NCBI GenBank assembly: GCA_964361495.1 | Contig: CAYIAH010000003.1 | Location: 1 to 60,129 of the forward strand | DNA: 60,129 bases | Source of the DNA: an uncultured Candidatus Saccharibacteria bacterium | GTDB taxonomy: Bacteria > Patescibacteriota > Minisyncoccia > Sungbacterales > HO2-52-23 | Direction: 5' to 3' | In this document: one piece after another, positions 93-48,784 of the stretch | Numbering within the stretch: the stretch's first letter is position 1 | Layout: each line of letters starts with the position of its first letter | Made by a program: the position numbers and the translations under genes | Notes under the pieces: generated by a model | Told to the model about the DNA's origin: nothing | The model's input: only the letters and a program-made list of their open reading frames with translations | The model's database searches: none

Positions 93-770
93 CTACATAA
101 GATGCAGTCCGCACTCCTGACCCTGATGCGTGGTTCCCGAAAACCGTCCTGCGCGTTCAAATTGTCCCTGCCGCCCTCCTCCCTCGCGCACTTTTCCGCT
201 TGTCGTGCACGGCTTGCAGCCGAGCGATAAAAATCCTTCGTCGTAAAGCGGGTGATATTTCAAATTTTGTTCTTTGATATACTGCCAGATCTCGTCTTTG
301 GTCCAAAACGCAATCGGATTTATTTTTGCAATTTTCCCCTGCTCAATAAGTTTCGTATTTTTTCGATACTCGGTCTCATCCCTCCGGAGTCCCGTGATCC
401 ATGCATCATAGTGCGGCAAGACCCGCTCAATCGCCGGAATCTTCATCTCGCAACATTTGTACTGATCATTTTTTATAAAAGAATCTCCGTACTCTTCATC
501 AATTTTTCTTCGCGCTTCATCTGATGCGCGCACCCATTCAAATTTCATGCCGGTCTCGCGGACAAGCGTCTCTCCGAACGCAAGCGTCTCTGGGAATTCG
601 TAGCCCGTGTCAATGCCGATGAATTTGATGTCGGGCCGCACCCGCATCGCGAGGTCTACAATCACGCGCGAGTCCTTTCCGAAGGAACACGCCACGAACA
701 GCCGCGAATATTTCTCAACCGCGTATTGTATAATCAGCTGCGAAAGCTCTGCTTTTTCATCAAGAGTCAT
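93..770 (-). CDS. cysH: APS/PAPS reductase, CysH family (Fe-S type)
   Basis: 225-aa ORF. It has a PP-loop-like FGKDS, a Cys pair KCCEMK, a GCKPCT CxxC and the C-terminal ECGLH catalytic motif. Confidence 0.8.
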   Translation of the reverse strand: MTLDEKAELSQLIIQYAVEKYSRLFVACSFGKDSRVIVDLAMRVRPDIKFIGIDTGYEFPETLAFGETLVRETGMKFEWVRASDEARRKIDEEYGDSFIKNDQYKCCEMKIPAIERVLPHYDAWITGLRRDETEYRKNTKLIEQGKIAKINPIAFWTKDEIWQYIKEQNLKYHPLYDEGFLSLGCKPCTTSGKVREGGGRQGQFERAGRFSGTTHQGQECGLHLM

Positions 771-1525: not shown

Positions 1526-2520
1526 TTGACTGCAAAAAATTTAAGTTTATATCCAAGTCCAAGATCTTCAAGCGCGCGCTCAAGCGCCCCCGCCTTCTCC
1601 GGATCCCGCAAAAATTCCTGGAAACGTTCCGGTAAATACTCCAGAGTCTCATCGCCGAACGGATCCAGAAATTGAAAATAATTAAGGAGCGAGTCCCTTC
1701 CGCTCACAAACGTTTCGATGGCAACTTCGCGAAAACCAATTCTCTTTTCTAAAAGTTCGTGAAGCGTTTTTTCTGAAAAATAACTCAAATGCACGCGGCC
1801 GGTGAATGTCCGCGCCTCTCCGCGAAGAATCATACACACCAGACTTGCCACATTCGGGCACCGGCCGATAAACATGCCGCCGGGCTTCAGAATCCGATGC
1901 ACTTCGCGGATCACCTCGACTGGTTTCGGAAGATGCTCAATCACGCCAAACATTGATACGATATCAAAATGTTGATCCGGAAATCTGCAGTCCTCAAGAA
2001 GACGCGGCTGGACGCGAATTCCGAATTTCTCTTCTGCCATGCGCCCCGCCTTTTCGTTTAATTCAAGTCCCTCCACGTCGTACCCGCGATCTTTCGCGGT
2101 CTTTAAGAAGAGACCAAATGAACATCCGATATCAAGCACGCGCCCTCTCTGAAGATGCGGGGGGATGCGCGCAAATATCTCCTCATAAAGCTTTTTATCC
2201 ACTTCCTGCTGACGCGCGCTTGCAAGAAATTCAAGCGCGCGATTATTCGATGGCAACTCGTCGCTGTAGTATTTCAAAATTGCGGATTCTTTGAGCTGCG
2301 GGTTTACATACACAAGCGCACAGCGAGCGCACCGCACGAAACGAAAACCGTTTTTAACAAAAAGCGCCCGATAGTCGCGGGTGCCGCAAAGCCGACAGGG
2401 AATTTCTTCCGTGAGTTCAGAACGAACAAAACCGGTTTCCGGATCAATCAGACGATCAAGCTCTCCATCGCGCGCTTCAAAAAATTCATTACGTCTTGTT
2501 TCTTTATCAAACGTGCTCAT
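1522..2520 (-). CDS. Class I SAM-dependent methyltransferase with N-terminal zinc ribbon
   Basis: CRLCG...CARCALVYVNP double CxxC, followed by the VLDIGCSFGLF SAM-binding motif. Confidence 0.75.
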   Translation of the reverse strand: MSTFDKETRRNEFFEARDGELDRLIDPETGFVRSELTEEIPCRLCGTRDYRALFVKNGFRFVRCARCALVYVNPQLKESAILKYYSDELPSNNRALEFLASARQQEVDKKLYEEIFARIPPHLQRGRVLDIGCSFGLFLKTAKDRGYDVEGLELNEKAGRMAEEKFGIRVQPRLLEDCRFPDQHFDIVSMFGVIEHLPKPVEVIREVHRILKPGGMFIGRCPNVASLVCMILRGEARTFTGRVHLSYFSEKTLHELLEKRIGFREVAIETFVSGRDSLLNYFQFLDPFGDETLEYLPERFQEFLRDPEKAGALERALEDLGLGYKLKFFAVK

Positions 2521-3697
2521 ATGATAATTGTTTGTCCAAAAGCCGCTGATTGAGCGGCACGGTTTTGACGACGTCCAGTATCTTCTCCGACGCTTTCCCG
2601 TCGCCGAGGTGATACCCGCAGCGGGAAAGTTTTAATCTGAATTTTTTATCCGCAGGAAGGTCACGGATTTTTTTCGCAATTGCCGAAGCTTCTATCTTGC
2701 AGTCAATGACATTTTCTTCCCGAAATCGGCCGCGCTCGCGCTCGCCGAAATTGAGCGCGGGGAGTTTCAAATACGGCGCCTCTTTTATCATCGTGGAAGA
2801 ATTACCGAGCATCACCGACGCTCCTGCCATCAATCCGAGAAAATCAAGATTCGCGATATTTTTATGGACAAGAAACTGCCGGTCGCGTCGCACCTCGTCA
2901 ATTGCTTTAATAATCCCCTCATAGCCCGGATCTGAACACGGATATACTACTATTGAACGAACGCCCGACTCGCGGACTCCTTTGAGAATTTCGCGCATCC
3001 GGCGGTAATTTTCCGCGCGCGAGAGATACGTTTCCGGATGATACAGGAGAATCGCGTATGATCCGCTTTCGCCAAGACCATATTTTTTTCTGCTTTCTTG
3101 AGGATCACTATAAAGCTTTTTCATGATGCGATCTATATAGAGCGATCCCGCCGTGTGAATCCGCCATTGTTCCTCGCCCATGCGAGCGATACATTCGGCG
3201 GCATCTTTGGTTTCCGGAAAATGGAGATGTGCGAGTTTCGTGATGGAATGACGGATGATTTCATCAATATTTCCGGTGCGATCTCCTCCTTGCGAATGCG
3301 CAACCGGAATACCAAGAGTGATTGCCGCAAGCGCAACCACAAGATGCTCTCCGCGATCGCCGTGCACCATAATCATGTCCGGCTCAAGATCTGCGAGCAG
3401 CCGCGCCGCGGCCGTCATGCATACGCCGAGATTCTCCGCTCGGGTCTCGGGAGTATCATCCTTCCCCGTACCCATCTGAATGGTTTTAATCTTCGCGCGC
3501 GGAAAAAGCGCGCGCGCCTCGCCAACCGTACTGCCGAACGCAGCCGACGTATGCATATCGCCCAAAAGAATCTGAAGTTCGAGCGCGGGATCCCGTTCAA
3601 TAAGCCGCATGAGCGGCACATACGCACCGAATCCTCCTCGTTTTCCTGAAAAGGCGCATATTTTTCTTTTTGGTGATTTTGGTGATCTTGATTTCAT
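2507..3697 (-). CDS. neuC: UDP-N-acetylglucosamine 2-epimerase (hydrolysing), NeuC-like
   Basis: Motifs HGDRGEHL and HSQGGDRTGNIDEIIRHSITKLAHLHF. The start was moved to the ATG at 3697, which forms an ATGA overlap with the upstream stop at 3694. The ORF-track start at 3769 is probably an upstream extension. Confidence 0.75.
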   Translation of the reverse strand: MKSRSPKSPKRKICAFSGKRGGFGAYVPLMRLIERDPALELQILLGDMHTSAAFGSTVGEARALFPRAKIKTIQMGTGKDDTPETRAENLGVCMTAAARLLADLEPDMIMVHGDRGEHLVVALAAITLGIPVAHSQGGDRTGNIDEIIRHSITKLAHLHFPETKDAAECIARMGEEQWRIHTAGSLYIDRIMKKLYSDPQESRKKYGLGESGSYAILLYHPETYLSRAENYRRMREILKGVRESGVRSIVVYPCSDPGYEGIIKAIDEVRRDRQFLVHKNIANLDFLGLMAGASVMLGNSSTMIKEAPYLKLPALNFGERERGRFREENVIDCKIEASAIAKKIRDLPADKKFRLKLSRCGYHLGDGKASEKILDVVKTVPLNQRLLDKQLSYEHV

Positions 3698-5046
3698 CCG
3701 GGTAACCCCATTTCTTTTAGCAAAAATAATCCGATTCGTTCCCCTGATTTTCCATCGAGAAACTCGCATTGTTCGCGGGTAAGCAGTTTTCTCTCCTCCG
3801 CATCCGTTGACGGATTGTCAAAATACGTTCTCACCCACCGTATCAACTCATCGCGACTCGCGACCATCCGGATTCCCCCGGTCTGAAGCGCCTGCTGATA
3901 ATGCGTCATGCCGTACAGCCGCTTCGCATTATCATCCTCGATTCCAAAACCGATATTAATTACCGGCTTCCCGAACACTGCCGCATCCACGCTGATACTT
4001 GAAGCGTGACACACCAACACCGACATATGATACAGCGTATTCGCAAGCTCACCCATCTCCTCGCTCGTCATATCCCACTCGGCGAGGTGTGTCCGAGAAA
4101 AACGCGCGCCCGGGTACTCATAAATAAGGTCCGGACGCTTCTTGAGTTCTTCCGCGTCAATCGTGTCGTACGGAGGAAACCGAACGAGCAGTCCCGCATC
4201 CGCGCCGAATGCCCCCGATCGGGTCAATTCATGCATCAGGTCAATCACTTCCCAGTCAGATTTTGTAAAGGCGCTTCCGAGCGGCGAATACACAATCAGT
4301 TTTTTTCGCGGATCAAGACCTCTTTTTCTGAAAAATTCTTCGCGCGGCTCCGGAGAAAATCCGAAATACCCGTCATACTGCGGAATCCCGCCGATAAAAA
4401 TCATTTCTGATCTCACCGCGTGCCGCTCAATCAAATTTTTCCTGATGTGCCGGTTATACACGATGAGGCGATCCGGCAGAAGCCGCAGGACACATCGCGC
4501 CGTGGCCTTATCCCACGAGTTGATAAGCCCGACGGTCATGACCCTGCGCCTCCGCGCTTCCCGCACCAAATGCGTCTCGGTCTCATCAAATAAATTTCCG
4601 AGGAATACACAATCGGGCCGGTATTTTGAGAAAAGGCCCCAGAATGTTCTGTTTTGAACGAAGAGATAATCAAACAGGCGCGAGATCTTCACGAGGGGAC
4701 GGCGCGCGAAACACCAGTTCGCGAGAAAATACAGCGCATACCCCGCGTGATCACGCCGCTCTTCATAGAGCAGACGGCGGCGCAGAAGCGTCGTCTCGGT
4801 CCGCAAAAGCAGAAATTTCAATCGCGCAAACACTCTGTCGAGTCCCTTCGGCCGTATGGCCGGCACCGCTTCATAGATAATCCGCGGATCGTTAAATTCT
4901 TTTCTGTGATACTCCGCCCGCGCCTCATTTTTCACAAGAAGCACCAGCCGCAGATCCGGTGAGCGCATGAACGTTTTGAAAATTGCGGTTCGGAGAATAT
5001 TCTTCGATTCCACTCCCTCAAAGAGCGTGATGAAAAGCGTCTTCAT
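3694..5046 (-). CDS. TagB/TagF-like (CDP-glycerol glycerophosphotransferase-like) GT-B transferase, paralog 1 of 4
   Basis: GGIPQYD resembles the TagF GYPRxD motif. KKLIVYSP resembles ILYAPT. VLVCHASSISVDAAVFGKPVI resembles LITDYSS..FD...KPxI. It shares the MKT-FIT N-terminus and motif order with the ORFs at 45950, 47362 and 48785. Confidence 0.55.
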   Translation of the reverse strand: MKTLFITLFEGVESKNILRTAIFKTFMRSPDLRLVLLVKNEARAEYHRKEFNDPRIIYEAVPAIRPKGLDRVFARLKFLLLRTETTLLRRRLLYEERRDHAGYALYFLANWCFARRPLVKISRLFDYLFVQNRTFWGLFSKYRPDCVFLGNLFDETETHLVREARRRRVMTVGLINSWDKATARCVLRLLPDRLIVYNRHIRKNLIERHAVRSEMIFIGGIPQYDGYFGFSPEPREEFFRKRGLDPRKKLIVYSPLGSAFTKSDWEVIDLMHELTRSGAFGADAGLLVRFPPYDTIDAEELKKRPDLIYEYPGARFSRTHLAEWDMTSEEMGELANTLYHMSVLVCHASSISVDAAVFGKPVINIGFGIEDDNAKRLYGMTHYQQALQTGGIRMVASRDELIRWVRTYFDNPSTDAEERKLLTREQCEFLDGKSGERIGLFLLKEMGLPG

Positions 5047-6092
5047 CGAGAAAATGAAGCATAGTGCGCCCGGTTGAGAATCTGCATCACCTCAAGGCCG
5101 CGTTCGAATGAGAGCGGCGAATCATGCGGCGGCATTTCTCCCGCAAGCATTTTTTGATAATGCGCGGTCTCGCGAAAAAAATCATCCGGCCGTTTTTTGA
5201 CAAAGACGCGCTCAACCAATTCTTTTCCTTCCGTCTGATACCGGACAAGGTCGCCTTCCGGCGCGCCGTTACAGTGCCATTCAATAAAACCGCACTCGCC
5301 CTGAAGACGCGCCCATTTTCTTACCGGATACGTGATTACATCCTGCACCACGCGGCCCGCGCCGCCGCGCTCGGCCTTCAGAAGAAATGCGGCGAGGCGA
5401 TCATACTCGCCCCCGCGCTCTTCCTGCATGTCAAAAAGAGATTTCGCGGTCGTCACACTTCCCCATCCGAGCGCGCGCGCAAAAAAGAGCCACAGGTGCA
5501 GCGCGTGCGAATGCTCTCCTCCCGCGCCGCCGCCGCGCCGCCAGTATCCGAGGTATGAATCCCACGGACCCGCAAGCCACGGATGCGCCGAAAAAATCCC
5601 CCGCCAATGTTCCCGAAATTCAACATCCATTGTAAGAATTTTTCCGAACATTCCCTCACGCGCCAGCGCCGCGACCGCTTCAACGCTTTCCGCGATCCCA
5701 TGATCGTACCCGACGGTCACGATCGTCTCGCCGAATCTCTGGCGCGCGCTTATAAACTCGCTCACTCCCGCGAGATCCGGTGTGCATAACGGCTTCTCAA
5801 TGTGAAGCAGACGCGGCCGGTCCTCAAGCAAAGACGCGAGCGCGAGCTTCATGTGAGAATCGGGCGGGGTGCCAATTACGACCACGTCAAAACCCCCTTT
5901 CGGTTCTTTTCCTGTTTCAAAAAGCTGGATCGCGGGATCCCATGCGCCGTAACGAGCGGGATAAATATCGTTCCGCATACGCTCGAGCGAACGCGGATCG
6001 TTATCAACCACCGCGACGTCCCATCCCATGCGGCGACTTGCCTGCGCCATATGATTTCCGATGGATCCCGCGCCTATGATTTTTACCTTCAT
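5043..6092 (-). CDS. Gfo/Idh/MocA-family NAD(P)-dependent oxidoreductase
   Basis: N-terminal Rossmann KVKIIGAGSIGNHMA and the EKP motif (LLHIEKPLC). ATGA overlaps at both ends. Confidence 0.65.
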   Translation of the reverse strand: MKVKIIGAGSIGNHMAQASRRMGWDVAVVDNDPRSLERMRNDIYPARYGAWDPAIQLFETGKEPKGGFDVVVIGTPPDSHMKLALASLLEDRPRLLHIEKPLCTPDLAGVSEFISARQRFGETIVTVGYDHGIAESVEAVAALAREGMFGKILTMDVEFREHWRGIFSAHPWLAGPWDSYLGYWRRGGGAGGEHSHALHLWLFFARALGWGSVTTAKSLFDMQEERGGEYDRLAAFLLKAERGGAGRVVQDVITYPVRKWARLQGECGFIEWHCNGAPEGDLVRYQTEGKELVERVFVKKRPDDFFRETAHYQKMLAGEMPPHDSPLSFERGLEVMQILNRAHYASFSR

Positions 6093-6727
6093 ACATTTTT
6101 TGCGACAAGCGGCCCAAGTTCCGCGATCGCGCGTATTAAAGGAAATCTTTTATTCTTCCACTGATTAAAATCGTTCGCCACGCCGACGAATGGACAGCCG
6201 CAGCGCTCCGCCGCTTCAATATCTCCTTCGCCGTCCCCCACCATCATCACTTCGGCGGAATCTCGTCCTTCCGCCGCAATAATGTTTTTTAGATTTTCAG
6301 TTTTCTCCGGCGGCCATCCATATATACGTTTAAAAAAACTGTGGATCCCCAGATGCGATATGGTTTTCTCAAGCGCCGCCTGCGGCGTCATGGAATTGAC
6401 GTAGAGCGCATAGCTTCTGCCGAGTTCCGCGAGCGCCTCACGCGTTCCGGGAATCATTCCATACTCGGCAATGCCTCGCTGCACCGCGTCGTCAAAACGC
6501 TTCGCGTACTCATCCGTGAGCGCCGCAACTTCTTCGGCATTCTTTCCGCTCCGCACAAAAATATCTCGCAGGATATCAAATCGCGTTCCCTGAGTGCGAG
6601 ACTCAACCTCACGGACAATGTCCTCTTTCACGCCGCTTCCCTCAAAGATCGAAAGGAGCGATTCCTGCTTCAGACGATTGGAATCAACGATCACGCCGTC
6701 AAAATCAAAGACAATCACCCGGATCAT
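6089..6727 (-). CDS. HAD-superfamily phosphatase
   Basis: VFDFDGVIVDS (DxDG motif I) and a late MVGDGEGD motif. Translationally coupled to neuB. Confidence 0.8.
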   Translation of the reverse strand: MIRVIVFDFDGVIVDSNRLKQESLLSIFEGSGVKEDIVREVESRTQGTRFDILRDIFVRSGKNAEEVAALTDEYAKRFDDAVQRGIAEYGMIPGTREALAELGRSYALYVNSMTPQAALEKTISHLGIHSFFKRIYGWPPEKTENLKNIIAAEGRDSAEVMMVGDGEGDIEAAERCGCPFVGVANDFNQWKNKRFPLIRAIAELGPLVAKNV

Positions 6728-8277
6728 ACCGCGTCAACGAATTCGTCAAACTGATGCCGTCCCCAATTGCGCAAATAGGTTTTTCGCTCGTCGCGGCCCA
6801 TTCGCGCAATCGCACGGTCAACGTAAAACGAATCGTTGCTCACATTTGCGGTTGATATCTCCTCAAAAATCGCGCCCGTTCTCGTGCCGAATCCGTGCCA
6901 CACTCCCTGCGGAACCCACAGCGTATCCCCGGGAACGAGCACCTTTCGGCGCCCCTCAATTTCAACTTCAAGTTCCCCGGTAAGCATGCAGAACGTCTCG
7001 TCCTTTTTCTTGTGGTAATGCACCGGATTCCACTGGCCCGCGAGCTGGATAATAAGCTTGCGCGCATATTCGCGGTTCACGCACTCAATGATGACGCAAC
7101 CGGTATCGCCGAATTGCTCAAGCCCATAGTGATGGGAAAGCTCCACCGAAAAATCATGCCCCAAGGGAATACGCGCCTCGTTGAGCATTCCCTTCACCGC
7201 GTGCACCGCGGAGTAGATCACATCTTTCTTCACATTTCGCCCGCGCTTCGCGACCTCGCCCGCGATCGCCTCCTGCGGCGCGTAGGCGCGATCGGCCACA
7301 AGGCCCTCATGCCAATCGCCGCTTGAGAGCTGTCCCGCGCCCCACGGCATCGCAAAGAATACGTCGGCGCGTTCAATCACCGCACCCGGACGCACTTCTT
7401 TTCGTGCAAAGACGCCTCGTTTGAGCGAGGCGAGATCGCTTTTTTCCTTCTCGCTGATCTCGCGCTCGCCTTCTCCCCCGCACGCATCAACCGCCTCTTG
7501 GTACGCGCTCACCCACGCATCAATCTGTTCGGGGGTCGCAGAATACGCATTGAGCGTGATCGTGTCGGTCGCGACACCGACATGTTTTTCAAAAATTCGG
7601 GCGCCCTTTGCGTATGCGATGCGCACCGCATTAATGTTTGAAGGATCTTCGTGGGTTGAAAAACCGATCGTGATCCCCGGATACCGGATGCGCATTACGA
7701 CGATCTGATTGAGATGCAGAATGCTGTTTGGCGCGGGATAGACCGCGACACAATGCATGAGCGCGAAGTGCACGCCGCGGTGCTGAAAAAAGCTTACAAT
7801 CTTGTCGATCCGCTTGAGCGTGAGTCCGCCCGTGGAACAAATCACGGGCTTCCCGGTTTCCGCGACGCGTTCAAGCAGAGGCCAATCTTCCGCGGAGCAA
7901 CTTCCTATTTTAACCACCTCAATCCCGAGCCGTTCAATCTTGTCAACCGACGCCTCGTCGAACGGCGTGGCGATGGTGACGAGATTTTTTCGTTTTGTCT
8001 CCTCCACAAGCGTCCTGAATTCTTCTTCCGAAAGACGCGTTGAGAGAAATCGGGGAATGTGCTTATTGTCTTTACTCTCATGGTGGGCGGGATGGATAAA
8101 CGTTTCCAGCTCCCTGAATTGAAGCTTGATCGCTCCGCGCACACCGTGGCGTCCCGCGATGTCGGCCATCGCGCGAATAATGCGAAGCCCGTGCTCAACC
8201 GATCCCTGATGGTTATTCGCCATCTCGAATATAAAAAGATTTTTGAAATCAAATTTTTGCGGCGGGAACGTATTCAT
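6724..8277 (-). CDS. neuB: Nonulosonate (N-acetylneuraminate-type) synthase NeuB fused to a SAF domain and a C-terminal D-lyxose/mannose-isomerase-like cupin
   Basis: NeuB-like FIFEMANNHQGS, KIGSCS and FSTHE motifs. SAF-like KRGVFARKEVRPGAVI. C-terminal cupin with WNPVHYHKKKDETF...PGDTLWVPQGVWHGF...FEEISTANVSNDSFY. Confidence 0.8.
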   Translation of the reverse strand: MNTFPPQKFDFKNLFIFEMANNHQGSVEHGLRIIRAMADIAGRHGVRGAIKLQFRELETFIHPAHHESKDNKHIPRFLSTRLSEEEFRTLVEETKRKNLVTIATPFDEASVDKIERLGIEVVKIGSCSAEDWPLLERVAETGKPVICSTGGLTLKRIDKIVSFFQHRGVHFALMHCVAVYPAPNSILHLNQIVVMRIRYPGITIGFSTHEDPSNINAVRIAYAKGARIFEKHVGVATDTITLNAYSATPEQIDAWVSAYQEAVDACGGEGEREISEKEKSDLASLKRGVFARKEVRPGAVIERADVFFAMPWGAGQLSSGDWHEGLVADRAYAPQEAIAGEVAKRGRNVKKDVIYSAVHAVKGMLNEARIPLGHDFSVELSHHYGLEQFGDTGCVIIECVNREYARKLIIQLAGQWNPVHYHKKKDETFCMLTGELEVEIEGRRKVLVPGDTLWVPQGVWHGFGTRTGAIFEEISTANVSNDSFYVDRAIARMGRDERKTYLRNWGRHQFDEFVDAV

Positions 8278-8316: not shown

Positions 8317-8784
8317 TTAGTTGCGTGGAGATGCAAGTCCTTTCACATAACGCGCAAGAAGCCACGAGCTTGACTGCACTTTGCCGCCGCGGCCGACTCG
8401 AAAAATCATTCTGCATCCGATCTTCCGGCAGACGCCGACCTCCGGAATGTTATCAGCGAAACGGTCGCCGCCATTTGCAAAGATGTCGGGCTTCACATGA
8501 ATCAATTCTACGGCAACGCTCATGTCTTTCGGATCGGGGAGGTGACGCGTGAGAATAACACGATCCACGCAACGGAACGATTCAATGATTTCCTTCCGCT
8601 CCTCCTGCGGCATGAAAATAACCTTCTTTTTTTTCTTCAGCCAGTGGTCGTTATTCAAAATAACAATCAGGGTGTCGCCGAGCTTCTTTGCTTCTTCAAA
8701 CAGCCGCACGTGTCCCACATGGACCGGATCAAATCCGCCGCTCACCGCGACCACCGTCAATTTTTTCTTCATGCCTCGCGCCAT
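8317..8784 (-). CDS. Cytidylyltransferase-fold nucleotidyltransferase (TagD / RfaE domain II-like)
   Basis: GGFDPVHVGHV (HxGH) motif and CVDRVIL. Small 155-aa single-domain protein. An alternative ATG lies at 8772. Confidence 0.7.
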   Translation of the reverse strand: MARGMKKKLTVVAVSGGFDPVHVGHVRLFEEAKKLGDTLIVILNNDHWLKKKKKVIFMPQEERKEIIESFRCVDRVILTRHLPDPKDMSVAVELIHVKPDIFANGGDRFADNIPEVGVCRKIGCRMIFRVGRGGKVQSSSWLLARYVKGLASPRN

Positions 8785-8829: not shown

Positions 8830-9564
8830 CTATGCCGCGCCATTTTCGATCCTTTTTTTCATAAACCATTCCGCGATTTCAAAGTCAAGACCGTGATCAA
8901 TGTTCACCGAATCCTCAGGCGTCATAAAAAAATACACGAGCTTCCTGCCTGAGGTTGACTTTAGTTCGCGGATCGTCCGCGTGCGCATCACATCCATAGC
9001 GCCTGTGTGGATATATGCCTTCGGGAAGAGCTGGCGGGGAAGATTATGCGGTTCGTCAAAACCAGTGAAGGACGTGGGCAAAAACGGTTCCAGAAATCGC
9101 CCGTCGGCAGAACTGATCCGCCACAATTTATAGGGATGTTTCGGAGCCTCGCAAATCGGCCGCGCGGCATCCGCATCGGGATTCCCGAAGAGCGTCTCAA
9201 TGCCCTCGTCAATATGCGCGGCGGTGCGGAGCGGCGAGGTCGGCGGAAGCCGGAGCACCATCTCGGGTTCATACCCCTCGCGCATTTTCAGCCAGTCAAG
9301 CGCGTGCAGCAAAAATTCCACATCAGTGGAAAGATCGTCCGAAATTTCTGCCGGCCGCAAAAACGGCACCTCGGCGCCGTGCGCCCGTGCAACCGCCGCG
9401 ATCTCCGGATCATCCGTGGATACGATCGTCCGGGTAAGACGCCTTGATTGCTTCGCCGCGTCAATGGTCCACGCAATCAAAGGCCTGCCGCACAGCAGTT
9501 TTATATTTTTTCGCGGTATGCTTTTTGACCCCCCACGCGCGGGGATAATACCCAGAATGCCCAT
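8830..9564 (-). CDS. neuA: Acylneuraminate/nonulosonate cytidylyltransferase, copy 2
   Basis: IIPARGGSKSIPRKNIK motif. First gene of the minus-strand operon that runs from 9564 to 93. Confidence 0.8.
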   Translation of the reverse strand: MGILGIIPARGGSKSIPRKNIKLLCGRPLIAWTIDAAKQSRRLTRTIVSTDDPEIAAVARAHGAEVPFLRPAEISDDLSTDVEFLLHALDWLKMREGYEPEMVLRLPPTSPLRTAAHIDEGIETLFGNPDADAARPICEAPKHPYKLWRISSADGRFLEPFLPTSFTGFDEPHNLPRQLFPKAYIHTGAMDVMRTRTIRELKSTSGRKLVYFFMTPEDSVNIDHGLDFEIAEWFMKKRIENGAA

Positions 9565-9637: not shown

Positions 9638-9677
9638 TTACATCAAATTTTAAACGATCGTTAGAAATTTGATGTAA
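9638..9677. promoter_or_regulatory. Perfect palindrome TTACATCAAATTT-N14-AAATTTGATGTAA (candidate operator, site 1)
   Basis: Read directly from the sequence. It lies in the AT-rich spacer between the regulator stop (9708) and the start of the nonulosonate operon (9564). Confidence 0.6.
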
Positions 9678-9707: not shown

Positions 9708-10286
9708 CTAGATCAGCCGGAAAAATTTTCGTGCTGCCCCCTCACATTTTCCCAAATCCTTGGTAACAAAATAATGAACATACCGTTCAACTTCCCAAAA
9801 TGAAGCGAGCGATTCAATTTCTTCATGACAATCGTATGGATACACAAATACACTTTTCTGGAAGGCAAAACATCCAAGAATTTTAAGATGCTGCTGGAAT
9901 GCGCGCCGGCCCCCTCCGCTTCGTTCCGGAATATCAAAAAGAATTACTCTCCATTTTTTATCCCATACTCCTTCGGGTAATTCAAAATTGTCCAATTCGA
10001 ATTGTCGTACATATTTTTTTCCGCTTTCAGTCACATAAAGATACATCTTGTTTCCGCGCTCCCTGTATTCAATAAGACGGCGCCGATGTAGCGCGCGAAG
10101 CGCTCGTTGAATTCTATCCCGTTCATGATTACTCCGTCTTCCGCCGCCAAGAAATGGCTTCAATACTTTCAGTGCATTTGGTGCCATTAATGCCATCGCA
10201 AGAGCCGTTCCGGTGCCAAGCACAATCAAAATTGCTTTGGTAAGCGTCCTGACGTGGAGATAATTTTTTATTTCATGAAGTGCCAT
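9708..10286 (-). CDS. Membrane-anchored PaaX-like regulator (wHTH plus Cas2-like ferredoxin-fold domain)
   Basis: The N-terminal hydrophobic segment AILIVLGTGTALAMALMAP is followed by a wHTH-like RALRALHRRRLIEYRERGNKMYLYVTESGKKY. Next comes WRVILFDIPERSGGGRRAFQQHLKILGCFAFQKSVFVYPYD, which matches the PaaX/Cas2-fold signature. The gene is visibly more AT-rich than its neighbours. Confidence 0.6.
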   Translation of the reverse strand: MALHEIKNYLHVRTLTKAILIVLGTGTALAMALMAPNALKVLKPFLGGGRRSNHERDRIQRALRALHRRRLIEYRERGNKMYLYVTESGKKYVRQFELDNFELPEGVWDKKWRVILFDIPERSGGGRRAFQQHLKILGCFAFQKSVFVYPYDCHEEIESLASFWEVERYVHYFVTKDLGKCEGAARKFFRLI

Positions 10287-10401: not shown

Positions 10402-12282
10402 ATGAATCCATCATCTCCAATCTATCTTCGCAATCTCGCGCGGCTTGTGCGGTATTATATTCTCCTCTCCACCACCGAGGCCGGATCAGGGCATCCGACG
10501 TCATCCCTCTCCGCCGCCGACCTTATGACCATCCTCGTCTTCGGAGGATTTTTTCATTTTGATCCCGCAAATCCGGAGAACCCTGCAAACGACCGGCTCA
10601 TTTTTTCAAAAGGACATGCTTCTCCGCTCCTTTATGCCCTCTGGGCCGCTGCTGGAAAAATAACCGAAGAGGAATTAAAAACTCTTCGCATGTTCGGATC
10701 GCGACTCGAAGGGCATCCCGCAATGACATTCCCCTATACCGAAGCGGCAACCGGCTCGCTCGGACAAGGACTTTCCATAGGCGTCGGCATGGCGCTCAAC
10801 GCGAAGTATCTGGACAAAATTCCTTATCGAACGTTCGTGCTCTTGGGCGACAGCGAAATCGCCGAGGGATCGGTATGGGAAGCAATGCAGTGCGCGGCGC
10901 ATTATAAATTGAATAATCTCGCAGGAATTCTTGATGTGAATCGCCTTGGCCAGCGGGGAGAAACCATGCACGGCCACGACCTTGAAGCATACGAGAAAAA
11001 GGTGATCGCATTCGGATGGAATGCGATCATGATTGACGGACACTCGCATGACGAGATCGCCCGCGCCTATGAACACGCGCTCACGGCAACGGAAAAACCA
11101 GTAATGATCATTGCGCGCACTCTCAAAGGAAAGGGGATTTCATTTCTTGAAGATCAGGACGGGTGGCACGGAAAAGCGCTTTCGCGCGACCAATTTCAAA
11201 ATGCACTCAAAGAACTGGAGGAGGTTGACCGGACAATTCGGGGGGAAATTGCACCGCCGCCCGCATATTCATCTTCTTCCAATTTGGAAACTCGATCCCC
11301 GGGTAACGTCCCCGCACCTTCCCCGACACAAGAACTTCCGCCTCCGGTCTATCCGATCGAGACGCCGGTCGCCACCAGAAAAGCCTACGGCAACGCGCTC
11401 GCGAGGATTTCTCCCGCATTTCCCGATATCGTTGTGCTTGATGCGGAAGTCGGCAATTCAACATTCGCCGAGATCTTCAAAAAAGCGCATCCGGAACGGT
11501 TTTTTGAAATGTATATCGCGGAACAAAATATGGCGGGCGCCGCCCTCGGTATGTCGCGCCGCGGCAAAATTCCTTTTTGTTCCACATTCGCGGCGTTTTT
11601 CACCCGCGCCTTCGATCAAATCAGAATGAGTCAGTATTCAGATGCGAATATCAAATTCACTGGTTCCCATGCGGGCGTTTCCATCGGCGAGGACGGTCCA
11701 TCCCAAATGGGACTTGAAGACCTCGCGATGTTCAGAACACTCCGCGACGGTGTCGTCCTCTATCCTTCTGATGCAATCTCAACAGAGCGTCTTGTTGAAG
11801 AAGCGGCGCAATCACGCGGCATTGTGTACATTCGCACCACCCGAAAAGACACGCCGATTCTTTACGACGCGGGCGAGAAATTTCCCATTGGCGGGAGCAA
11901 AACCATCCGTTCAAACAATCATGATATCGCGACCATTGTGGCCGCAGGCATCACCCTTCACGAGGCGCTCGCCGCGCATGAATCGTTACAAAAAGAGAGA
12001 ATCTCAATTCGCGTCATTGATTGCTACAGCATCAAACCCCTTGACACTGCAACGCTTCTCAAAGCCGCACAAGAAACACACACGCTTATCACTGTTGAAG
12101 ATCACTATCCCGAAGGCGGACTTGGCGAAGCCGTCGCGGCGGCGCTCGCGAATTCCGGCGCCTCCATGCATTCGCTTGCAGTCCGGCGCCGGCCGAAAAG
12201 CGGAGAGCCGAACGAGCTTCTCGACTATGAAGAAATTTCAAAAGACGCGATCATCCGTGCCATACACAGGATACTGCAATAA
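10402..12282 (+). CDS. tkt: Transketolase (fused split-type N and C halves)
   Basis: GSGHPTSSLSAADLM and GSLGQGLS motifs in the N-terminal half, and a Pyr/C-terminal half with EQNM. A Pro/Ser-rich linker (nt 11251-11367) joins the halves. Confidence 0.9.
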   Translation: MNPSSPIYLRNLARLVRYYILLSTTEAGSGHPTSSLSAADLMTILVFGGFFHFDPANPENPANDRLIFSKGHASPLLYALWAAAGKITEEELKTLRMFGSRLEGHPAMTFPYTEAATGSLGQGLSIGVGMALNAKYLDKIPYRTFVLLGDSEIAEGSVWEAMQCAAHYKLNNLAGILDVNRLGQRGETMHGHDLEAYEKKVIAFGWNAIMIDGHSHDEIARAYEHALTATEKPVMIIARTLKGKGISFLEDQDGWHGKALSRDQFQNALKELEEVDRTIRGEIAPPPAYSSSSNLETRSPGNVPAPSPTQELPPPVYPIETPVATRKAYGNALARISPAFPDIVVLDAEVGNSTFAEIFKKAHPERFFEMYIAEQNMAGAALGMSRRGKIPFCSTFAAFFTRAFDQIRMSQYSDANIKFTGSHAGVSIGEDGPSQMGLEDLAMFRTLRDGVVLYPSDAISTERLVEEAAQSRGIVYIRTTRKDTPILYDAGEKFPIGGSKTIRSNNHDIATIVAAGITLHEALAAHESLQKERISIRVIDCYSIKPLDTATLLKAAQETHTLITVEDHYPEGGLGEAVAAALANSGASMHSLAVRRRPKSGEPNELLDYEEISKDAIIRAIHRILQ

Positions 12283-13077
12283 TCAATGAGACGCTTTTTT
12301 GAAATGATACACCCCGATAGCGCCCCCGTAATCCGTATCGCGCTCGAAAGGAACCGCATGCCGATTAAGCCACTCCATGAATAGTTTAATCTTTTTCTCG
12401 TCAATGCCGAGTTTTGAATCGCGGGCAACATTCGGGAGCCGGCGGCTAAGGTCATCAATCATCTTTTTTCCATGCGCCCATTCGTGATCCACGGTTTTCC
12501 ATTCAAGTTCCATTTTGAGAATTTTTCCCCACTCCATAAAATTGAACGGCGTGAGATAATGGAGATCCGCAAGAGTAATTCGCGCATCGAATAAGCACCG
12601 AAGTGCGGTCAAAATATATCCGCGGGGATTGAGCCAGTTCGGACACGAAACGATAAGCGATCCCCCCGGTTTCAAAAGTTCTTTGAAACGCCGGAGGATC
12701 GCAAGCGGATCATCCATGTGCTCAAGCGTCCCGAGGCAGACCACGGCATCAAACTTTCCGCGCACGTTTTTAATCTCTGTTTTCTGAAATAAAAGATTCG
12801 GGCATTGATGGGCGCTCTTCGCGACCGCGATCGCGTCGGAAGAATAATCAATGCCGATCACTCTTTTCGCGCCGCGTTCCGCAATTAAGTACGCGAGTTC
12901 TCCGGTTCCGCATCCCGCGTCAAGTACCATTTTTCCCTTCCATGAAGGAATGGCTTTTAATACCTCAATACGGTCATAGGCAAGATCGCCCTTTGCAAAA
13001 AGGAGTTTCGTGTAATGCGTGGATTCTCCGCGCCGGTAAATGGAATTGTAAATCGCCTCAAGATCTTTATTGTGCAT
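12283..13077 (-). CDS. Class I SAM-dependent methyltransferase
   Basis: VLDAGCGTGELAY motif. Its stop codon abuts the convergent tkt stop with no spacer. Confidence 0.8.
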   Translation of the reverse strand: MHNKDLEAIYNSIYRRGESTHYTKLLFAKGDLAYDRIEVLKAIPSWKGKMVLDAGCGTGELAYLIAERGAKRVIGIDYSSDAIAVAKSAHQCPNLLFQKTEIKNVRGKFDAVVCLGTLEHMDDPLAILRRFKELLKPGGSLIVSCPNWLNPRGYILTALRCLFDARITLADLHYLTPFNFMEWGKILKMELEWKTVDHEWAHGKKMIDDLSRRLPNVARDSKLGIDEKKIKLFMEWLNRHAVPFERDTDYGGAIGVYHFKKASH

Positions 13078-13084
13078 AACGGAA

Positions 13085-13245
13085 TAGACCTGTCGCGTAA
13101 TAATTTTCGTAGCGAAATTTTCAGATTTTGAGCGAGGCGAAGCAAAAATTTTGAAGCATATACAGAGTATCTGTTGAAAAATTTTTGCAAAGCCGCAGCC
13201 AAAATATGGAAATTGCAGCAGAAAGATTATTACGCAACAGGTCTA
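13085..13245. repeat. 20-bp inverted repeat pair (1 mismatch) enclosing a 121-bp AT-rich core
   Basis: TAGACCTGTCGCGTAATAAT at 13085-13104 pairs with ATTATTACGCAACAGGTCTA at 13226-13245. The pair fills the rmlA/methyltransferase intergenic spacer. Confidence 0.7.
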
Positions 13246-13250
13246 CTGTA

Positions 13251-13976
13251 TTACCTCTCGGATGCGCTTCGCTTCGCGGCCCATATGGACGTTCCAAGAA
13301 GCGTCGAAAATGTCCCCGCGTCAGACCAAAATCCTTTTATAAATTCAAAGGTGTAGTCGCCTTTTCTGATATATTCGTTCACGGCATCAACAATTTCAAG
13401 TTCCCCCCGCGCCGAGGGGTGCAGTGTTCGTATAATATCAAAGATGCGGTGATCAAAAAGATAGAATCCGACATCTGCATAGGGGAATCTGGGCCTTTTT
13501 GACTTCTCAATAATTTTGAGAATCCGGGTACGCGTACGATTAAACACCGGCGTGCCGAAGCGGCGCGGATCCGCAACTTTTTTTAAAAAAATGGCGGTGC
13601 CGCTTCTGAATTTCCGAACCGCGTTCTTAAAATTCTGTTCAAAGATATTATCGCCGAGAATCATGGCAACCGATCCCCCATCCGCAAAATCTTCCGCACA
13701 GCTCAACGCATCGGCAATGCCGCCGTTATCTTTATCCTGCAACGCATAAGAAAGTTTAACGCCGTGCTCCTTTCCCGATCCCAAAAAATTCATAAAATGC
13801 CCCGCATGTTCTTTTCCGCATACAATCATAATTTCTTTAATCCCCGAACGACGCAAAGTTTCCAATGGATATAAAATCATCGGTTTGTCGTACAAAGGCA
13901 GAAGATGCTTATTCGTAATTCTCGTCAACGGACGAAGACGCGTCCCGAGTCCGCCGGCAGTAATGACTCCTTTCAT
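13251..13976 (-). CDS. rmlA: Glucose-1-phosphate thymidylyltransferase (short RmlA type)
   Basis: GGLGTRLRPLTRITNKHLLPLYDKPMILYPL. ATGA-coupled to rmlB. Confidence 0.8.
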   Translation of the reverse strand: MKGVITAGGLGTRLRPLTRITNKHLLPLYDKPMILYPLETLRRSGIKEIMIVCGKEHAGHFMNFLGSGKEHGVKLSYALQDKDNGGIADALSCAEDFADGGSVAMILGDNIFEQNFKNAVRKFRSGTAIFLKKVADPRRFGTPVFNRTRTRILKIIEKSKRPRFPYADVGFYLFDHRIFDIIRTLHPSARGELEIVDAVNEYIRKGDYTFEFIKGFWSDAGTFSTLLGTSIWAAKRSASER

Positions 13977-15013
13977 AGAAGATGGGGGTTAAGCAACGCG
14001 GTCTTTTTCATAACCCTCTTAAGCCATAGATGGTTATCGCGATACCACCGGAGGGTCTCGACAATCGCTTTTCCAAATTCGCGGCGGGGCCGCCACCCGA
14101 ATGTCTCTCGGATTTTCTCCGTCGCAAGTGCATAACGCCGATCGTGTCCCGGCCGGTCGGCAACAAATTCAATATCTGCGGCATCGCGGCCGAACGCCCG
14201 AAGGAGCTCCTCTGCAACCGCACGGTTACTCTTCTCCGTTTCGGCGCCGATGTGATAAATCTCGCCCGCTTTTCCTTTGCGAAGGATAACGTCAAGCGCA
14301 TGACAGTGATCCTCAACGTGAATCCAGTCGCGCACATGTTCCCCGTCTCCGTAGAGCGGAATTTTTTTTCCTTCCATGAGTCGCGTCACAAAAAAAGGAA
14401 TCAGTTTTTCCGGATATTGCCGCGGACCAAAATTATTTCCCGAGCGAGTGATGACGGCCGGAATGCCGAAGGTTCTGTGGTACGCGAGACATAAAAGATC
14501 TCCCGCCGCTTTCGTCGCCGCGTACGGAGAGCTCGGCCGCAGGGAAGAATGTTCGCGAAACTTCTCGCCGGAGCCAAGAGGCAGATCGCCGTATACTTCA
14601 TCGGTGCTCACCTGCACGTATCTTTGCGCTTCCGGGTACCGCCGCACTGCCTCAAGAAGTATGCGCACCCCCTCAATGTTGGTACGCACAAAATCACCGG
14701 CATTTCCGTGAATACTCCGGTCAACATGGGTCTCTGCGGCAAAATTGATCACCGCGCCGGGATGATATTTCTTAAACACCCGCTCCACGACACGCTCATC
14801 CGCAATATCGCCTTTCACGAACGAGTAACGCCGATCTCCCGCAACATCGCGAAGATTCTCAAGATTCCCGCAGTAAGTGAGCTTATCAAAATTGACCACG
14901 CGCGCCGCCCCTCTTGCACGGGAATTCCCGAGAATATACCGGATGAAATTTGAGCCGATAAACCCCGCGCCGCCGCATACCAATAAAGTTTTAGCCCAAT
15001 TTTTCCGTTTCAT
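13973..15013 (-). CDS. rmlB: dTDP-glucose 4,6-dehydratase
   Basis: GGAGFIGSNF Rossmann motif, YAATKAAGD (YxxxK), and length and overall layout typical of RmlB. Confidence 0.9.
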   Translation of the reverse strand: MKRKNWAKTLLVCGGAGFIGSNFIRYILGNSRARGAARVVNFDKLTYCGNLENLRDVAGDRRYSFVKGDIADERVVERVFKKYHPGAVINFAAETHVDRSIHGNAGDFVRTNIEGVRILLEAVRRYPEAQRYVQVSTDEVYGDLPLGSGEKFREHSSLRPSSPYAATKAAGDLLCLAYHRTFGIPAVITRSGNNFGPRQYPEKLIPFFVTRLMEGKKIPLYGDGEHVRDWIHVEDHCHALDVILRKGKAGEIYHIGAETEKSNRAVAEELLRAFGRDAADIEFVADRPGHDRRYALATEKIRETFGWRPRREFGKAIVETLRWYRDNHLWLKRVMKKTALLNPHLL

Positions 15014-15659
15014 CTTTATCTAGAACGAAGTAATGGTTGCGCGGGGTATCGTGCCTCACGTAGTGGTTTCTCACGCGAAACTTCGCGCGCCTGATCTCCC
15101 GCAATACTCGCGCCACCGGATAGCCGCGCATGCCGATCTCCCATTGGTGCGCCCCGGGCGGTGCGGGAGGAAGCCGCCGCAGCGCGGGAAAACGCACCGC
15201 CCATGCAATTTCTTTCATGAAAGGAAATTTCAATACGCCGCCGAAAAGTGTCCTGCGCGCGTCCGGCATCGACATAAAAAGCGTGCGTCTCGTCACGCGC
15301 CGCAGTTCTGCAAGCGCTTTCGGAAAATCTTCAAAAGGAAGATGCTCCAGCACTTCGCACGCAATGCTCATTTCAAAAGAATTATCCGCCGCGGGAATCG
15401 CGAGCACCGATCCCACAAAATCGGGCGCATACTCCGGCTTCACGTCAAGGGTTTTGATCGCGACGCCGAACTTTTTTAAATAGCCGGTCACGAGGCCGTG
15501 CGAAGGGCCCACTTCGAGCACCGAAAATGAGGCGCGGCCCGCCTCTTCGTGCCGCGCGATCTCATGCGCCACCGCCCTGATTTGATTGAAATAATGGATC
15601 CACCGCGCCTTATGGTCATAAAAGCGCGGCGACCAAAATGGTACATCGTATACGCCCAT
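14991..15659 (-). CDS. SAM-dependent methyltransferase
   Basis: VLEVGPSHGL and CEVLEHLP motifs. The start is set at the ATG at 15659 (MGVYDV), just after the upstream stop at 15667. The ORF-track start is 15725. Confidence 0.6.
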   Translation of the reverse strand: MGVYDVPFWSPRFYDHKARWIHYFNQIRAVAHEIARHEEAGRASFSVLEVGPSHGLVTGYLKKFGVAIKTLDVKPEYAPDFVGSVLAIPAADNSFEMSIACEVLEHLPFEDFPKALAELRRVTRRTLFMSMPDARRTLFGGVLKFPFMKEIAWAVRFPALRRLPPAPPGAHQWEIGMRGYPVARVLREIRRAKFRVRNHYVRHDTPRNHYFVLDKDETEKLG

Positions 15660-15666
15660 AGTATAT

Positions 15667-48774: not shown

Positions 48775-48784
48775 ATTATAATTT

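Follow-up and report, generated by a model that had tools for sequence, protein, structure and literature searches.

Architecture of the fusion protein

We analysed a 60,129-nucleotide stretch of contig CAYIAH010000003.1 (hereafter the window) from an uncultured Candidatus Saccharibacteria bacterium (assembly GCA_964361495.1). A minus-strand open reading frame (ORF) with an ATG start, spanning positions 6724–8277 including the stop codon, encodes a 517-residue protein that combines a NeuB-type synthase, a SAF-like domain and a D-lyxose-isomerase-like cupin. The first-pass annotation of this DNA, made from the sequence without database searches, had proposed a NeuB synthase fused to a D-lyxose/D-mannose-isomerase-like cupin, about 170 residues longer than a NeuB plus SAF protein. 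Pfam matches, profile searches, fold comparison and conserved residues show that the fusion is real. The C-terminal peptide quoted in that annotation is found in the ORF, and the protein exceeds the 349-residue NeuB of Neisseria meningitidis (NmeNeuB; PDB 1xuz/1xuu) by 168 residues. This excess is wholly C-terminal, lying past the SAF-like region that is still alignable to NmeNeuB as far as residue 321.

The NeuB TIM-barrel domain (about residues 12–270; 7468–8244, minus strand) was delimited from the Pfam match and the NmeNeuB alignment. Pfam NeuB (PF03102) matches residues 48–268 with 143.9 bits against a gathering score of 22.1. The SAF/AFP-like domain (about residues 285–335; 7273–7425, minus strand) was placed by alignment and carries A309-M310-P311 where NmeNeuB has K313-R314-P315; the protein aligns with 1xuu and with a second structure, 3g8r, to residue 321–325 in this region. 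The cupin (residues 341–517; 6727–7257, minus strand), delimited by profile, fold and conservation, consists of the barrel flanked by an N-terminal helix and a C-terminal tail. It is matched by Pfam Cupin_2 over residues 414–467 (43.8 bits) and, partially, by Lyx_isomer (PF07385; 25.8 bits against a gathering score of 20.8). Hidden Markov model (HMM) scanning thus recovered NeuB and, in part, Lyx_isomer, as the first-pass annotation had led us to expect; Pfam SAF was not reported for this protein, although it was for members of a betaproteobacterial clade described below (clade C). All three relevant NCBIfam equivalogs scored below their cut-offs: NeuB (TIGR03569) 141 bits against 399.65, PseI 134 against 340, and D-lyxose isomerase (NF051472) 19 against 350. 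An AlphaFold2 (AF2) model of the full protein from the single sequence reached a predicted local distance difference test (pLDDT) of 35 and was of no use.

Distribution of the fused architecture

The first-pass annotation had suggested searching databases for the same domain architecture, which proved abundant across many phyla. NeuB and Cupin_2 occur together in all of the best 120 database relatives, most of which also match Lyx_isomer and nearly all of which are about 490–545 residues long. A scan of species-representative genomes yielded 270 relatives, and the same fused ORF is present in 71 of the 75 loci that we inspected among them. With the cupin profile, 254 clusters (50% identity) were found at E 1e-30 or better among 1.84 billion representatives; the best 150 matches are mostly the C-terminus of proteins of roughly 500 residues, or fragments. 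The hosts are mainly Patescibacteria, together with Elusimicrobia, Chloroflexota, Firmicutes, Verrucomicrobia, Bacteroidota (Runella, Rhodocytophaga, Xanthocytophaga), Salinisphaera (Gammaproteobacteria, complete genome) and a Woesearchaeota metagenome-assembled genome (MAG). The fusion is also one continuous ORF in cultured bacteria with RefSeq genomes (Chromobacterium, Azoarcus, Rhodocyclus, Salinisphaera). The architecture is therefore widespread, not rare, and the domain combination is already present in automatic annotation; we know of no functional characterisation of the NeuB-cupin family, though earlier work on it may exist.

A search for natural split versions of the fusion, in which a stand-alone cupin would lie beside a separate NeuB, gave only two apparent cases: L085 is a frameshifted long-read assembly and L083 a truncated remnant adjoining a canonical NeuB. 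L084 is fragmentary. Stand-alone cupin homologues were seen in Paenibacillus and one other genome, in unrelated contexts. The homologue of Paenibacillus sp. NPDC058071 (179 residues; L001, 10001–10540) lies in an apparent natural-product cluster with a pyridoxal phosphate (PLP) decarboxylase, an NDK-like protein, a carbamoyltransferase, a carrier protein and an adenylating enzyme, a context unrelated to NeuB. The fusion or its cupin also appears in two sources for which contamination is possible: a partial protein labelled as from the heterokont alga Phaeothamnion confervicola (P0177), and the Woesearchaeota MAG (L063), where it accompanies a gene encoding a CTP_transf_3 cytidylyltransferase joined to a HAD domain.

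The cupin domain resembles D-lyxose isomerases

To place the cupin, we aligned the last 177 residues of the fusion with 51 cupin-only database matches; this alignment was the basis of both an HMM and an AF2 model. A sequence-only search of the PDB had ranked generic cupins and quercetinase highest, but the profile and fold searches overturned them as nearest kin. Searched against all PDB sequences, the HMM matched the D-lyxose isomerases of Thermofilum (7nzo, E 5e-15) and Bacillus subtilis (2y0o, E 5e-14), each in two stretches that jointly span nearly the entire domain. The stretches cover the pre-barrel segment, N-x-Y-C-x-K, P-G-Q..P.H.H, K-x-E-T-F, the His of the second cupin motif and the G-A-I-x-E-x-S...D-x-F-x-D tail. 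Quercetinase stood slightly above the D-lyxose isomerases in this search because its two cupin domains each add about 30 bits.

The AF2 model of the cupin domain reached a pLDDT of 92.2, and its ten best PDB folds are D-lyxose isomerases throughout (2y0o, 7nzo/p/q, 3kmh/3mpb), with template modelling (TM) scores of 0.68–0.72, 164–201 aligned columns and 16–24% identity. L-ribose isomerases come next in the ranking; small cupins cover the barrel alone (TMq about 0.46), and the match to KdgF is likewise restricted to the barrel (TMq 0.47). Compared with YdaE (2y0o), the Thermofilum enzyme (7nzo–7nzq) and E. coli O157 Z5688 (3kmh/3mpb), the cupin is alike over the whole domain, N-terminal helix included.

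The residue pattern that the first-pass annotation associated with D-lyxose ketol-isomerase-type cupins is borne out as H420-x-H422, K425-x-E427, H461, E473-x-S475 and N481-D482. H420, H422, E427 and H461, which form the predicted metal site, are conserved in 192, 196, 196 and 195 of 196 fusion proteins, respectively, and the counts for K425, E473, S475 and D482 are 196, 195, 191 and 195. The catalytic roles of these residues (metal site, Lys of K-x-E, second Glu) are presumed from what we know of cupin sugar isomerases. With the top folds and profiles in agreement and the metal ligands kept, the C-terminal domain fits the proposed class.

Several features nevertheless separate it from characterised D-lyxose isomerases, with which it shares 22–24% identity. 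The stretch of about 20 residues that those enzymes carry between their two cupin motifs is missing, the spacer from H-x-H to K-x-E is shorter, an invariant motif of its own is present (E379-x-S381-H382-H383), and, unlike those enzymes, the cupin of the fusion is always joined to NeuB. Because of the missing insert, the family-specific E-x-S-H-H motif and the failed NCBIfam equivalog, the sequence and the model together characterise it as D-lyxose-isomerase-like, and not as a demonstrated D-lyxose isomerase.

The NeuB half keeps its catalytic residues and has a changed acceptor site

The NeuB half shares with NmeNeuB, PseI and LegI the TIM barrel, a putative SAF/AFP-like domain, the metal His and the Lys and Ser residues that bind phosphoenolpyruvate (PEP). 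The metal His pair is kept as H209 and H232 (NmeNeuB H215 and H236), and alignment to NmeNeuB shows that the PEP-binding and catalytic residues E18, K51, Q53, K123, S126, S148, Y180, S207 and E230 are kept as well. No fewer than 193 of the 196 sequences have H209, H232, K51, K123, S126, S148 and S207; the five PEP-binding residues among them correspond to NmeNeuB K53, K129, S132, S154 and S213.

The score of the fusion against NmeNeuB is, however, only about 92 bits, and the fusion differs in its Ser/Thr/Ala/Met replacements and in the extra 177-residue isomerase-like domain. NmeNeuB E134 is replaced by S128 (in 195 of 196 sequences), D214 by T208 (or Gly) across the family, K313 by A309 across the family, and R314 by M310, a position held by Met, Ile, Phe or Leu in 195 of 196. 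PDB entries 4ipi and 4ipj carry a mutation at Arg314. In NmeNeuB, this arginine is essential and contacts N-acetylmannosamine (ManNAc). In eleven stand-alone canonical NeuBs from ten of the same loci, by comparison, E134 is present as Glu or Asp in 9/11, D214 in 10/11 and R314 in 9/11. The replacement of these residues in the fusion and their retention in most canonical NeuBs of the same loci argue that its acceptor differs from ManNAc, and that the fusion is a functionally distinct synthase with a different predicted acceptor pocket. Human NANS, which acts on sugar 6-phosphates, also has no equivalent of Arg314 (LTVKVGEPKG where NmeNeuB has LWVKRPGNG, confirmed against 1wvo); by analogy, this parallel would be compatible with a phosphosugar substrate for the fusion and lends that idea weak support.

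These replacements bear directly on the possibility that the protein is an ordinary N-acetylneuraminic acid (Neu5Ac) synthase acting on ManNAc made by NeuC, in which the cupin would have no catalytic role and would serve for sugar binding or oligomerisation. In favour of this, the operon encodes a genuine hydrolysing NeuC, and no other NeuB was found in the 60-kb window. Against it, the Arg314 equivalent is hydrophobic and E134 and D214 are replaced family-wide, the NeuB and PseI equivalog scores fall far under their cut-offs (NeuB 141 against 400), the catalytic residues of the cupin are near-invariant, and NeuC occurs in only 10 of 75 loci, often adjoining a canonical NeuB. We consider it very unlikely.

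The operon in the window

The fusion gene lies in a minus-strand operon preceded by a gene for a PaaX-like regulator (9711–10286). The operon begins with a 244-residue NeuA/PseF-like cytidylyltransferase of the CTP_transf_3 family (CTP3_a, 8833–9564) and a small TagD/RfaE-II-like nucleotidyltransferase of 155 residues (8320–8784). Downstream of the fusion follow a 212-residue HAD-IA phosphatase resembling phosphoglycolate phosphatases (6092–6727; motifs FDFDGV and GDGEGD), a divergent Gfo/Idh/MocA-like sugar oxidoreductase of 349 residues with an invariant EKP motif (5046–6092) and a 450-residue TagF-like (Glyphos_transf) transferase (3697–5046). Then come NeuC, a hydrolysing UDP-N-acetylglucosamine 2-epimerase of 420 residues (2510–3769), a methyltransferase (1525–2520), a second CTP_transf_3 protein of 242 residues (CTP3_b, 800–1525) and a PAPS-reductase-like protein (96–770). 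With their stop codons, CTP3_a spans 8830–9564, the TagD/RfaE-II-like gene 8317–8784, the HAD gene 6089–6727, the Gfo-like gene 5043–6092, the TagF-like gene 3694–5046, NeuC 2507–3769 and CTP3_b 797–1525.

Overlaps of 4 nt (ATGA) join the fusion to the HAD gene, the HAD gene to the Gfo-like gene and the latter to the TagF-like gene. The HAD start thus overlaps the stop codon of the fusion, in agreement with the translational coupling read by the first-pass annotation. The same annotation had hinted at a nonulosonate-9-phosphate phosphatase: the gene does encode a HAD enzyme with intact catalytic motifs, but of the HAD-IA, phosphoglycolate-phosphatase-like type.

CTP3_a scores 117, 103 and 87 bits against NeuA CMP-sialate synthetases (CMP, cytidine monophosphate), compared with 30 bits against KdsB, and is 37% identical to CTP3_b. 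NeuC matches TIGR03568 with 316 bits against a cut-off of 236. The operon hence encodes NeuC and two distinct CMP-transferases, as had been noted from the sequence. We also considered NeuC as a non-hydrolysing MnaA/WecB for a teichoic-acid linkage unit and rejected this assignment, since the wecB profile gave 98 bits. For the Gfo-like protein, a sequence search of the PDB returned no relative; profile search placed it only at the level of the Gfo/Idh/MocA family, where inositol and sugar dehydrogenases are the closest proteins of solved structure. The TagF-like protein has a weak NCBIfam match to the BFO_1060 family of glycosyltransferases. Tannerella nonulosonate transferases carry a BFO_1060-type domain. 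The TagF-like protein is our candidate for the enzyme that transfers the activated sugar acid.

A 40-nt palindrome (9638–9677) lies within the 146 nt that separate the PaaX-like gene from the operon. Its arms of 20 nt each are 90% complementary and abut without a spacer (TTACATCAAATTTTAAACGA / TCGTTAGAAATTTGATGTAA), and it may function as an operator or as a terminator. About 40 kb away, three tandem TagF-like paralogues (45947–50134, minus strand) are 28–31% identical to the TagF-like protein of the operon. A dense glycan-tailoring block (12286–20602, minus strand) encodes five class-I methyltransferases, a nucleoside diphosphate (NDP)-hexose transferase, a 4,6-dehydratase, an LPG_synthase_TM-family membrane protein, a GT1-family (Glycos_transf_1) glycosyltransferase and a DegT aminotransferase. 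It is separated from the operon by a single-chain transketolase gene on the opposite strand (10402–12279).

Conserved partners and gene fusions

Across the 75 inspected loci, the commonest partner of the fusion is CTP_transf_3 (58), followed by the Gfo-like protein (37, about 50% identical), the TagF-like protein (31) and HAD as a separate gene (30). The methyltransferase occurs in 13 loci, NeuC in 10, and the TagD-like protein in 8, all of them the window's closest relatives; in some of these it is joined to NeuB-cupin (P0016, L004). Unbiased clustering of neighbours agrees with these counts. The usual gene orders are CTP3, NeuB-cupin, HAD, Gfo and optionally TagF, or Gfo, NeuB-cupin, HAD and CTP3. 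The fusion, a NeuA-like cytidylyltransferase, HAD, a Gfo/Idh/MocA oxidoreductase and a TagF-like transferase thus form a module of conserved partners; the last two had been given no weight in the first-pass annotation.

Gene fusions of the Rosetta-stone kind link the activities to one another, and some partners are fused to the NeuB-cupin protein itself. Proteins of 930–1002 residues combine CTP_transf_3, CTP_transf_like (TagD-like), NeuB and cupin (L004, 94–2886; L005; L010, 97–3105), and a single 760-residue protein combines NeuB, cupin and HAD_2 (L048, 10001–12283). CTP_transf_like is joined to NeuB and cupin in P0016, and CTP_transf_3 in P0079.

A distant clade (about 50% identity) from Bacteroidota, Firmicutes, Verrucomicrobia and Woesearchaeota has a sole recurrent neighbour, a CTP_transf_3 protein of roughly 346 residues encoded immediately upstream; the other flanking genes are not conserved. 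Its C-terminal 105 residues form a small HAD-type phosphatase domain (HAD_PNKP, 9e-6), whose only solved relative is PDB 9iqw, a recently deposited 134-residue 'capsule biosynthesis protein' (E 8e-16). Three physical arrangements and two HAD subtypes are thus known in which NeuB-cupin has a phosphatase at its side, a pattern that points to a phosphorylated intermediate as an inherent part of the pathway. No Gfo-like gene was found in the roughly 10-kb flanks examined in the distant clade, so the role of the cupin appears independent of Gfo.

NeuC and a probable second nonulosonate module

NeuC, which the first-pass annotation had listed among the genes of the operon, is present in only 10 of 75 loci and is not a conserved partner of the fusion. 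Where NeuC is found, it often adjoins a canonical NeuB and a second CTP_transf_3 (L007, L018, L022, L080). This pattern and the altered acceptor site led us to reject NeuC as a general substrate supplier for the fusion. L020 is syntenic with the window, and its downstream order is NeuC, PAPS-reductase, two dehydratase/epimerase genes, CTP3_b and then NeuB. In the window, NeuC, CTP3_b and the PAPS-reductase-like gene probably belong to a second, canonical nonulosonate module. No second NeuB was found within the 60-kb window; as this module reaches the left edge of the window, its canonical NeuB partner probably lies just beyond. The earlier suggestion that two different nonulosonates may be produced fits these data, given the pairing of NeuC with canonical NeuB in related loci and the synteny of L020.

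The PAPS-reductase/PP-loop-family gene (96–770, minus strand) recurs in the NeuC/CTP3_b module (L009, L018, L020) and is unusual for such clusters; it may encode an ATP-pyrophosphatase-type tailoring enzyme.

The betaproteobacterial clade and PDB 3g8r

The best PDB match to the NeuB half is 3g8r from Chromobacterium violaceum (314 bits), a structural genomics entry described as 'probable spore coat polysaccharide biosynthesis protein E' (SpsE), which shares the Ser, Thr and hydrophobic substitutions of the fusion. Its 350-residue construct has no cupin and could be taken for a cupin-less relative. This was rejected, since the construct is a truncation: the parent protein (P0383, 100% identical) is a 495-residue NeuB-SAF-cupin fusion, 44% identical to the window fusion over the full length, cupin signatures included. 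Unlike in the window fusion, the first metal His is Gln in the C. violaceum protein. The cupin half of the family has no solved structure.

C. violaceum (L086), Azoarcus sp. KH32C (L087) and Rhodocyclus tenuis (L088) make up clade C. Here the fusion is embedded in a gene cluster of the cytidine diphosphate (CDP)-3,6-dideoxyhexose type, seen over some 3 kb on its upstream and 10 kb on its downstream side. Upstream lie DdhA (glucose-1-phosphate cytidylyltransferase), DdhB (CDP-glucose 4,6-dehydratase) and RfbH/DdhC, all exceeding their equivalog cut-offs. Downstream lie an acetolactate-synthase-like thiamine pyrophosphate (TPP) enzyme, a C-methyltransferase-type protein, a Gmm-like NUDIX or unknown protein, radical SAM enzymes and a huge glycosyltransferase; the Azoarcus cluster adjoins flagellin. 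The cluster may serve to make a branched or higher-carbon sugar of an unusual kind.

Proposed pathway and alternatives

From the domain architecture, the fold, the two active sites, the changed acceptor pocket, the partners and the gene fusions, we infer an order of steps, a substrate, its phosphorylation state and a product. The cupin would act as a metal-dependent aldose-ketose isomerase converting a ketose (phosphate) into an aldose of manno or lyxo configuration, with fructose-6-phosphate or fructose to mannose-6-phosphate or mannose as the cheapest candidate. The NeuB domain would then join this aldose to PEP in an irreversible condensation that yields a 2-keto-3-deoxy sugar acid, the likeliest product being a nine-carbon acid of the 2-keto-3-deoxynononic acid (Kdn) type or its 9-phosphate. 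Mannose on the way to a Kdn-type acid had already been suggested in the first-pass annotation, together with substrate channelling between the two halves, which is as hypothetical as the sugar itself. The coupled HAD phosphatase would remove the phosphate, the NeuA-like CTP_transf_3 would form the CMP-sugar and the TagF-like protein would transfer the CMP-sugar acid onto an envelope glycan, while the Gfo-like oxidoreductase would alter the precursor or the product. That the fusion is a bifunctional isomerase-synthase feeding, with its HAD, CTP3, TagF and Gfo partners, a pathway to a Kdn-type or new sugar acid has, in our estimate, about an even chance of being right.

Two known pathways invite comparison. 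The 2-keto-3-deoxyoctonate (Kdo) pathway (KdsD, KdsA, KdsC, KdsB) follows the same logic of ketose-phosphate/aldose-phosphate isomerisation, PEP condensation, dephosphorylation by a HAD enzyme and CMP activation. Its parts are non-orthologous: the fusion module has a cupin for the SIS isomerase, a NeuB-type synthase for the KdsA/DAHPS-type enzyme and a NeuA-like protein for the KdsB-like one. The Kdn/Neu5Ac-9-phosphate route is known from the Kdn-9-phosphate synthase and phosphatase of B. thetaiotaomicron and from animal NANS, NANP and CMAS. Both it and the module of the fusion contain a NeuB-type synthase, a HAD phosphatase and a CTP_transf_3 synthetase, and the last two accompany the fusion as conserved and gene-fused partners. 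Vertebrate CMAS, itself a CTP_transf_3-HAD fusion, parallels the CTP3-HAD protein of the distant clade. The Gfo-like oxidoreductase and TagF-like transferase are additions of the fusion module relative to this route, and we know of no Kdn/Neu5Ac-9-phosphate system with a fused isomerase.

A number of observations weigh against this pathway. Characterised D-lyxose isomerases use unphosphorylated sugars, a habit in conflict with the phosphorylated intermediate that the phosphatases imply. The window phosphatase is of the HAD-IA type, and the known Kdn-9-phosphate phosphatase is of the capless KdsC type. In its simplest form, the scheme leaves the Gfo-like partner without a function. Given a NeuC in the window and no second NeuB in its 60 kb, ManNAc stays a conceivable substrate here. 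Finally, in clade C neither CTP_transf_3 nor HAD nor a Gfo-like gene was found within 10 kb of the fusion, so the general role of the family may not be in a CMP-nonulosonate pathway. Clade C does not contradict an isomerase and synthase leading to a keto-deoxy acid, but implies that the product is not always CMP-activated by a neighbouring gene. Possibly the fusion makes a 2-keto-3-deoxy acid there that is used by the YerE-like TPP enzyme; it is also possible that it condenses a free dideoxy sugar freed from CDP.

The cupin might instead act downstream of the synthase, where it would isomerise the 2-keto-3-deoxy acid or an intermediate formed after it, perhaps in concert with the Gfo-like oxidoreductase. 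Precedents are KduI/KduD and IolB/IolG, in which cupin isomerases work on keto-deoxy sugar acids beside a dehydrogenase. The fusion by itself says nothing about the order of steps, and the Gfo-like partner, with inositol and sugar dehydrogenases as nearest solved kin, is present in 37 of 75 loci. The specific relatives of the cupin, however, are aldose-ketose isomerases of free sugars and not KduI, IolB or KdgF (the latter matching in the barrel only, as noted above), and the distant clade lacks a Gfo-like gene in the flanks examined. We regard this order of steps as rather unlikely.

Alternatively, a nucleotide sugar could release a free sugar, often a 6-deoxy one, whose configuration the cupin would reset. 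This would be a task like that of the NeuC/LegG or PseG-type steps in legionaminic and pseudaminic acid synthesis, and the product would be a modified nonulosonate rather than Kdn. This would suit clade C, where the fusion directly follows DdhA, DdhB and RfbH and lies near a Gmm-like NUDIX gene, as well as the NDP-hexose transferase, 4,6-dehydratase and DegT genes located 5–12 kb upstream in the window and the epimerase/dehydratase family present in 37 loci. Neither a dehydratase nor an aminotransferase is nonetheless among the most conserved partners in the clade of the window, which are a phosphatase and a cytidylyltransferase, and the only recurrent unit in the distant clade is the pair of CTP3-HAD and NeuB-cupin. 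We judge this explanation unlikely. An assembly or frameshift artefact merging two genes into one long ORF is already refuted by the conservation of the fusion across genomes (71 of 75 loci, the 120 best relatives and cultured RefSeq genomes) and has practically no chance of being true.

Returning to the isomerase-synthase, we tentatively extend the proposal, at less than even confidence, to a self-contained, hitherto unrecognised pathway of NeuB-cupin, HAD and a NeuA-like enzyme, a non-orthologous counterpart of the Kdo pathway, that would lead directly from a central ketose phosphate to a CMP-activated Kdn-type or new acid for envelope glycans in Patescibacteria and many other phyla, with Betaproteobacteria re-using the enzyme for a TPP-dependent branched or higher-carbon sugar.

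Implications

Nonulosonic acids (sialic, legionaminic and pseudaminic acids, Kdn) coat microbial surfaces and shape interactions with hosts and phages, and genome surveys usually infer their presence from NeuB homologues. The fusions form a large NeuB clade of broad phylogenetic range. Routine 'N-acetylneuraminate synthase' labels on this clade are probably wrong, because its sequences lack the ManNAc-binding arginine and bring their own predicted sugar isomerase. What appears to be new is a NeuB-family synthase with a putative built-in sugar isomerase and an altered acceptor site, half of one member of which is already in the PDB. If the proposal is true, a natural isomerase is joined to an irreversible condensing enzyme, an arrangement that could draw an unfavourable ketose-aldose equilibrium onward, and the pathway would offer a short way to a sugar acid that is new or has no amino group, with as few as two genes in some lineages. 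The culturable members (Chromobacterium violaceum, Azoarcus, Salinisphaera, Runella) make the question directly testable, and the family is prominent in Patescibacteria, where envelope chemistry is largely unknown.

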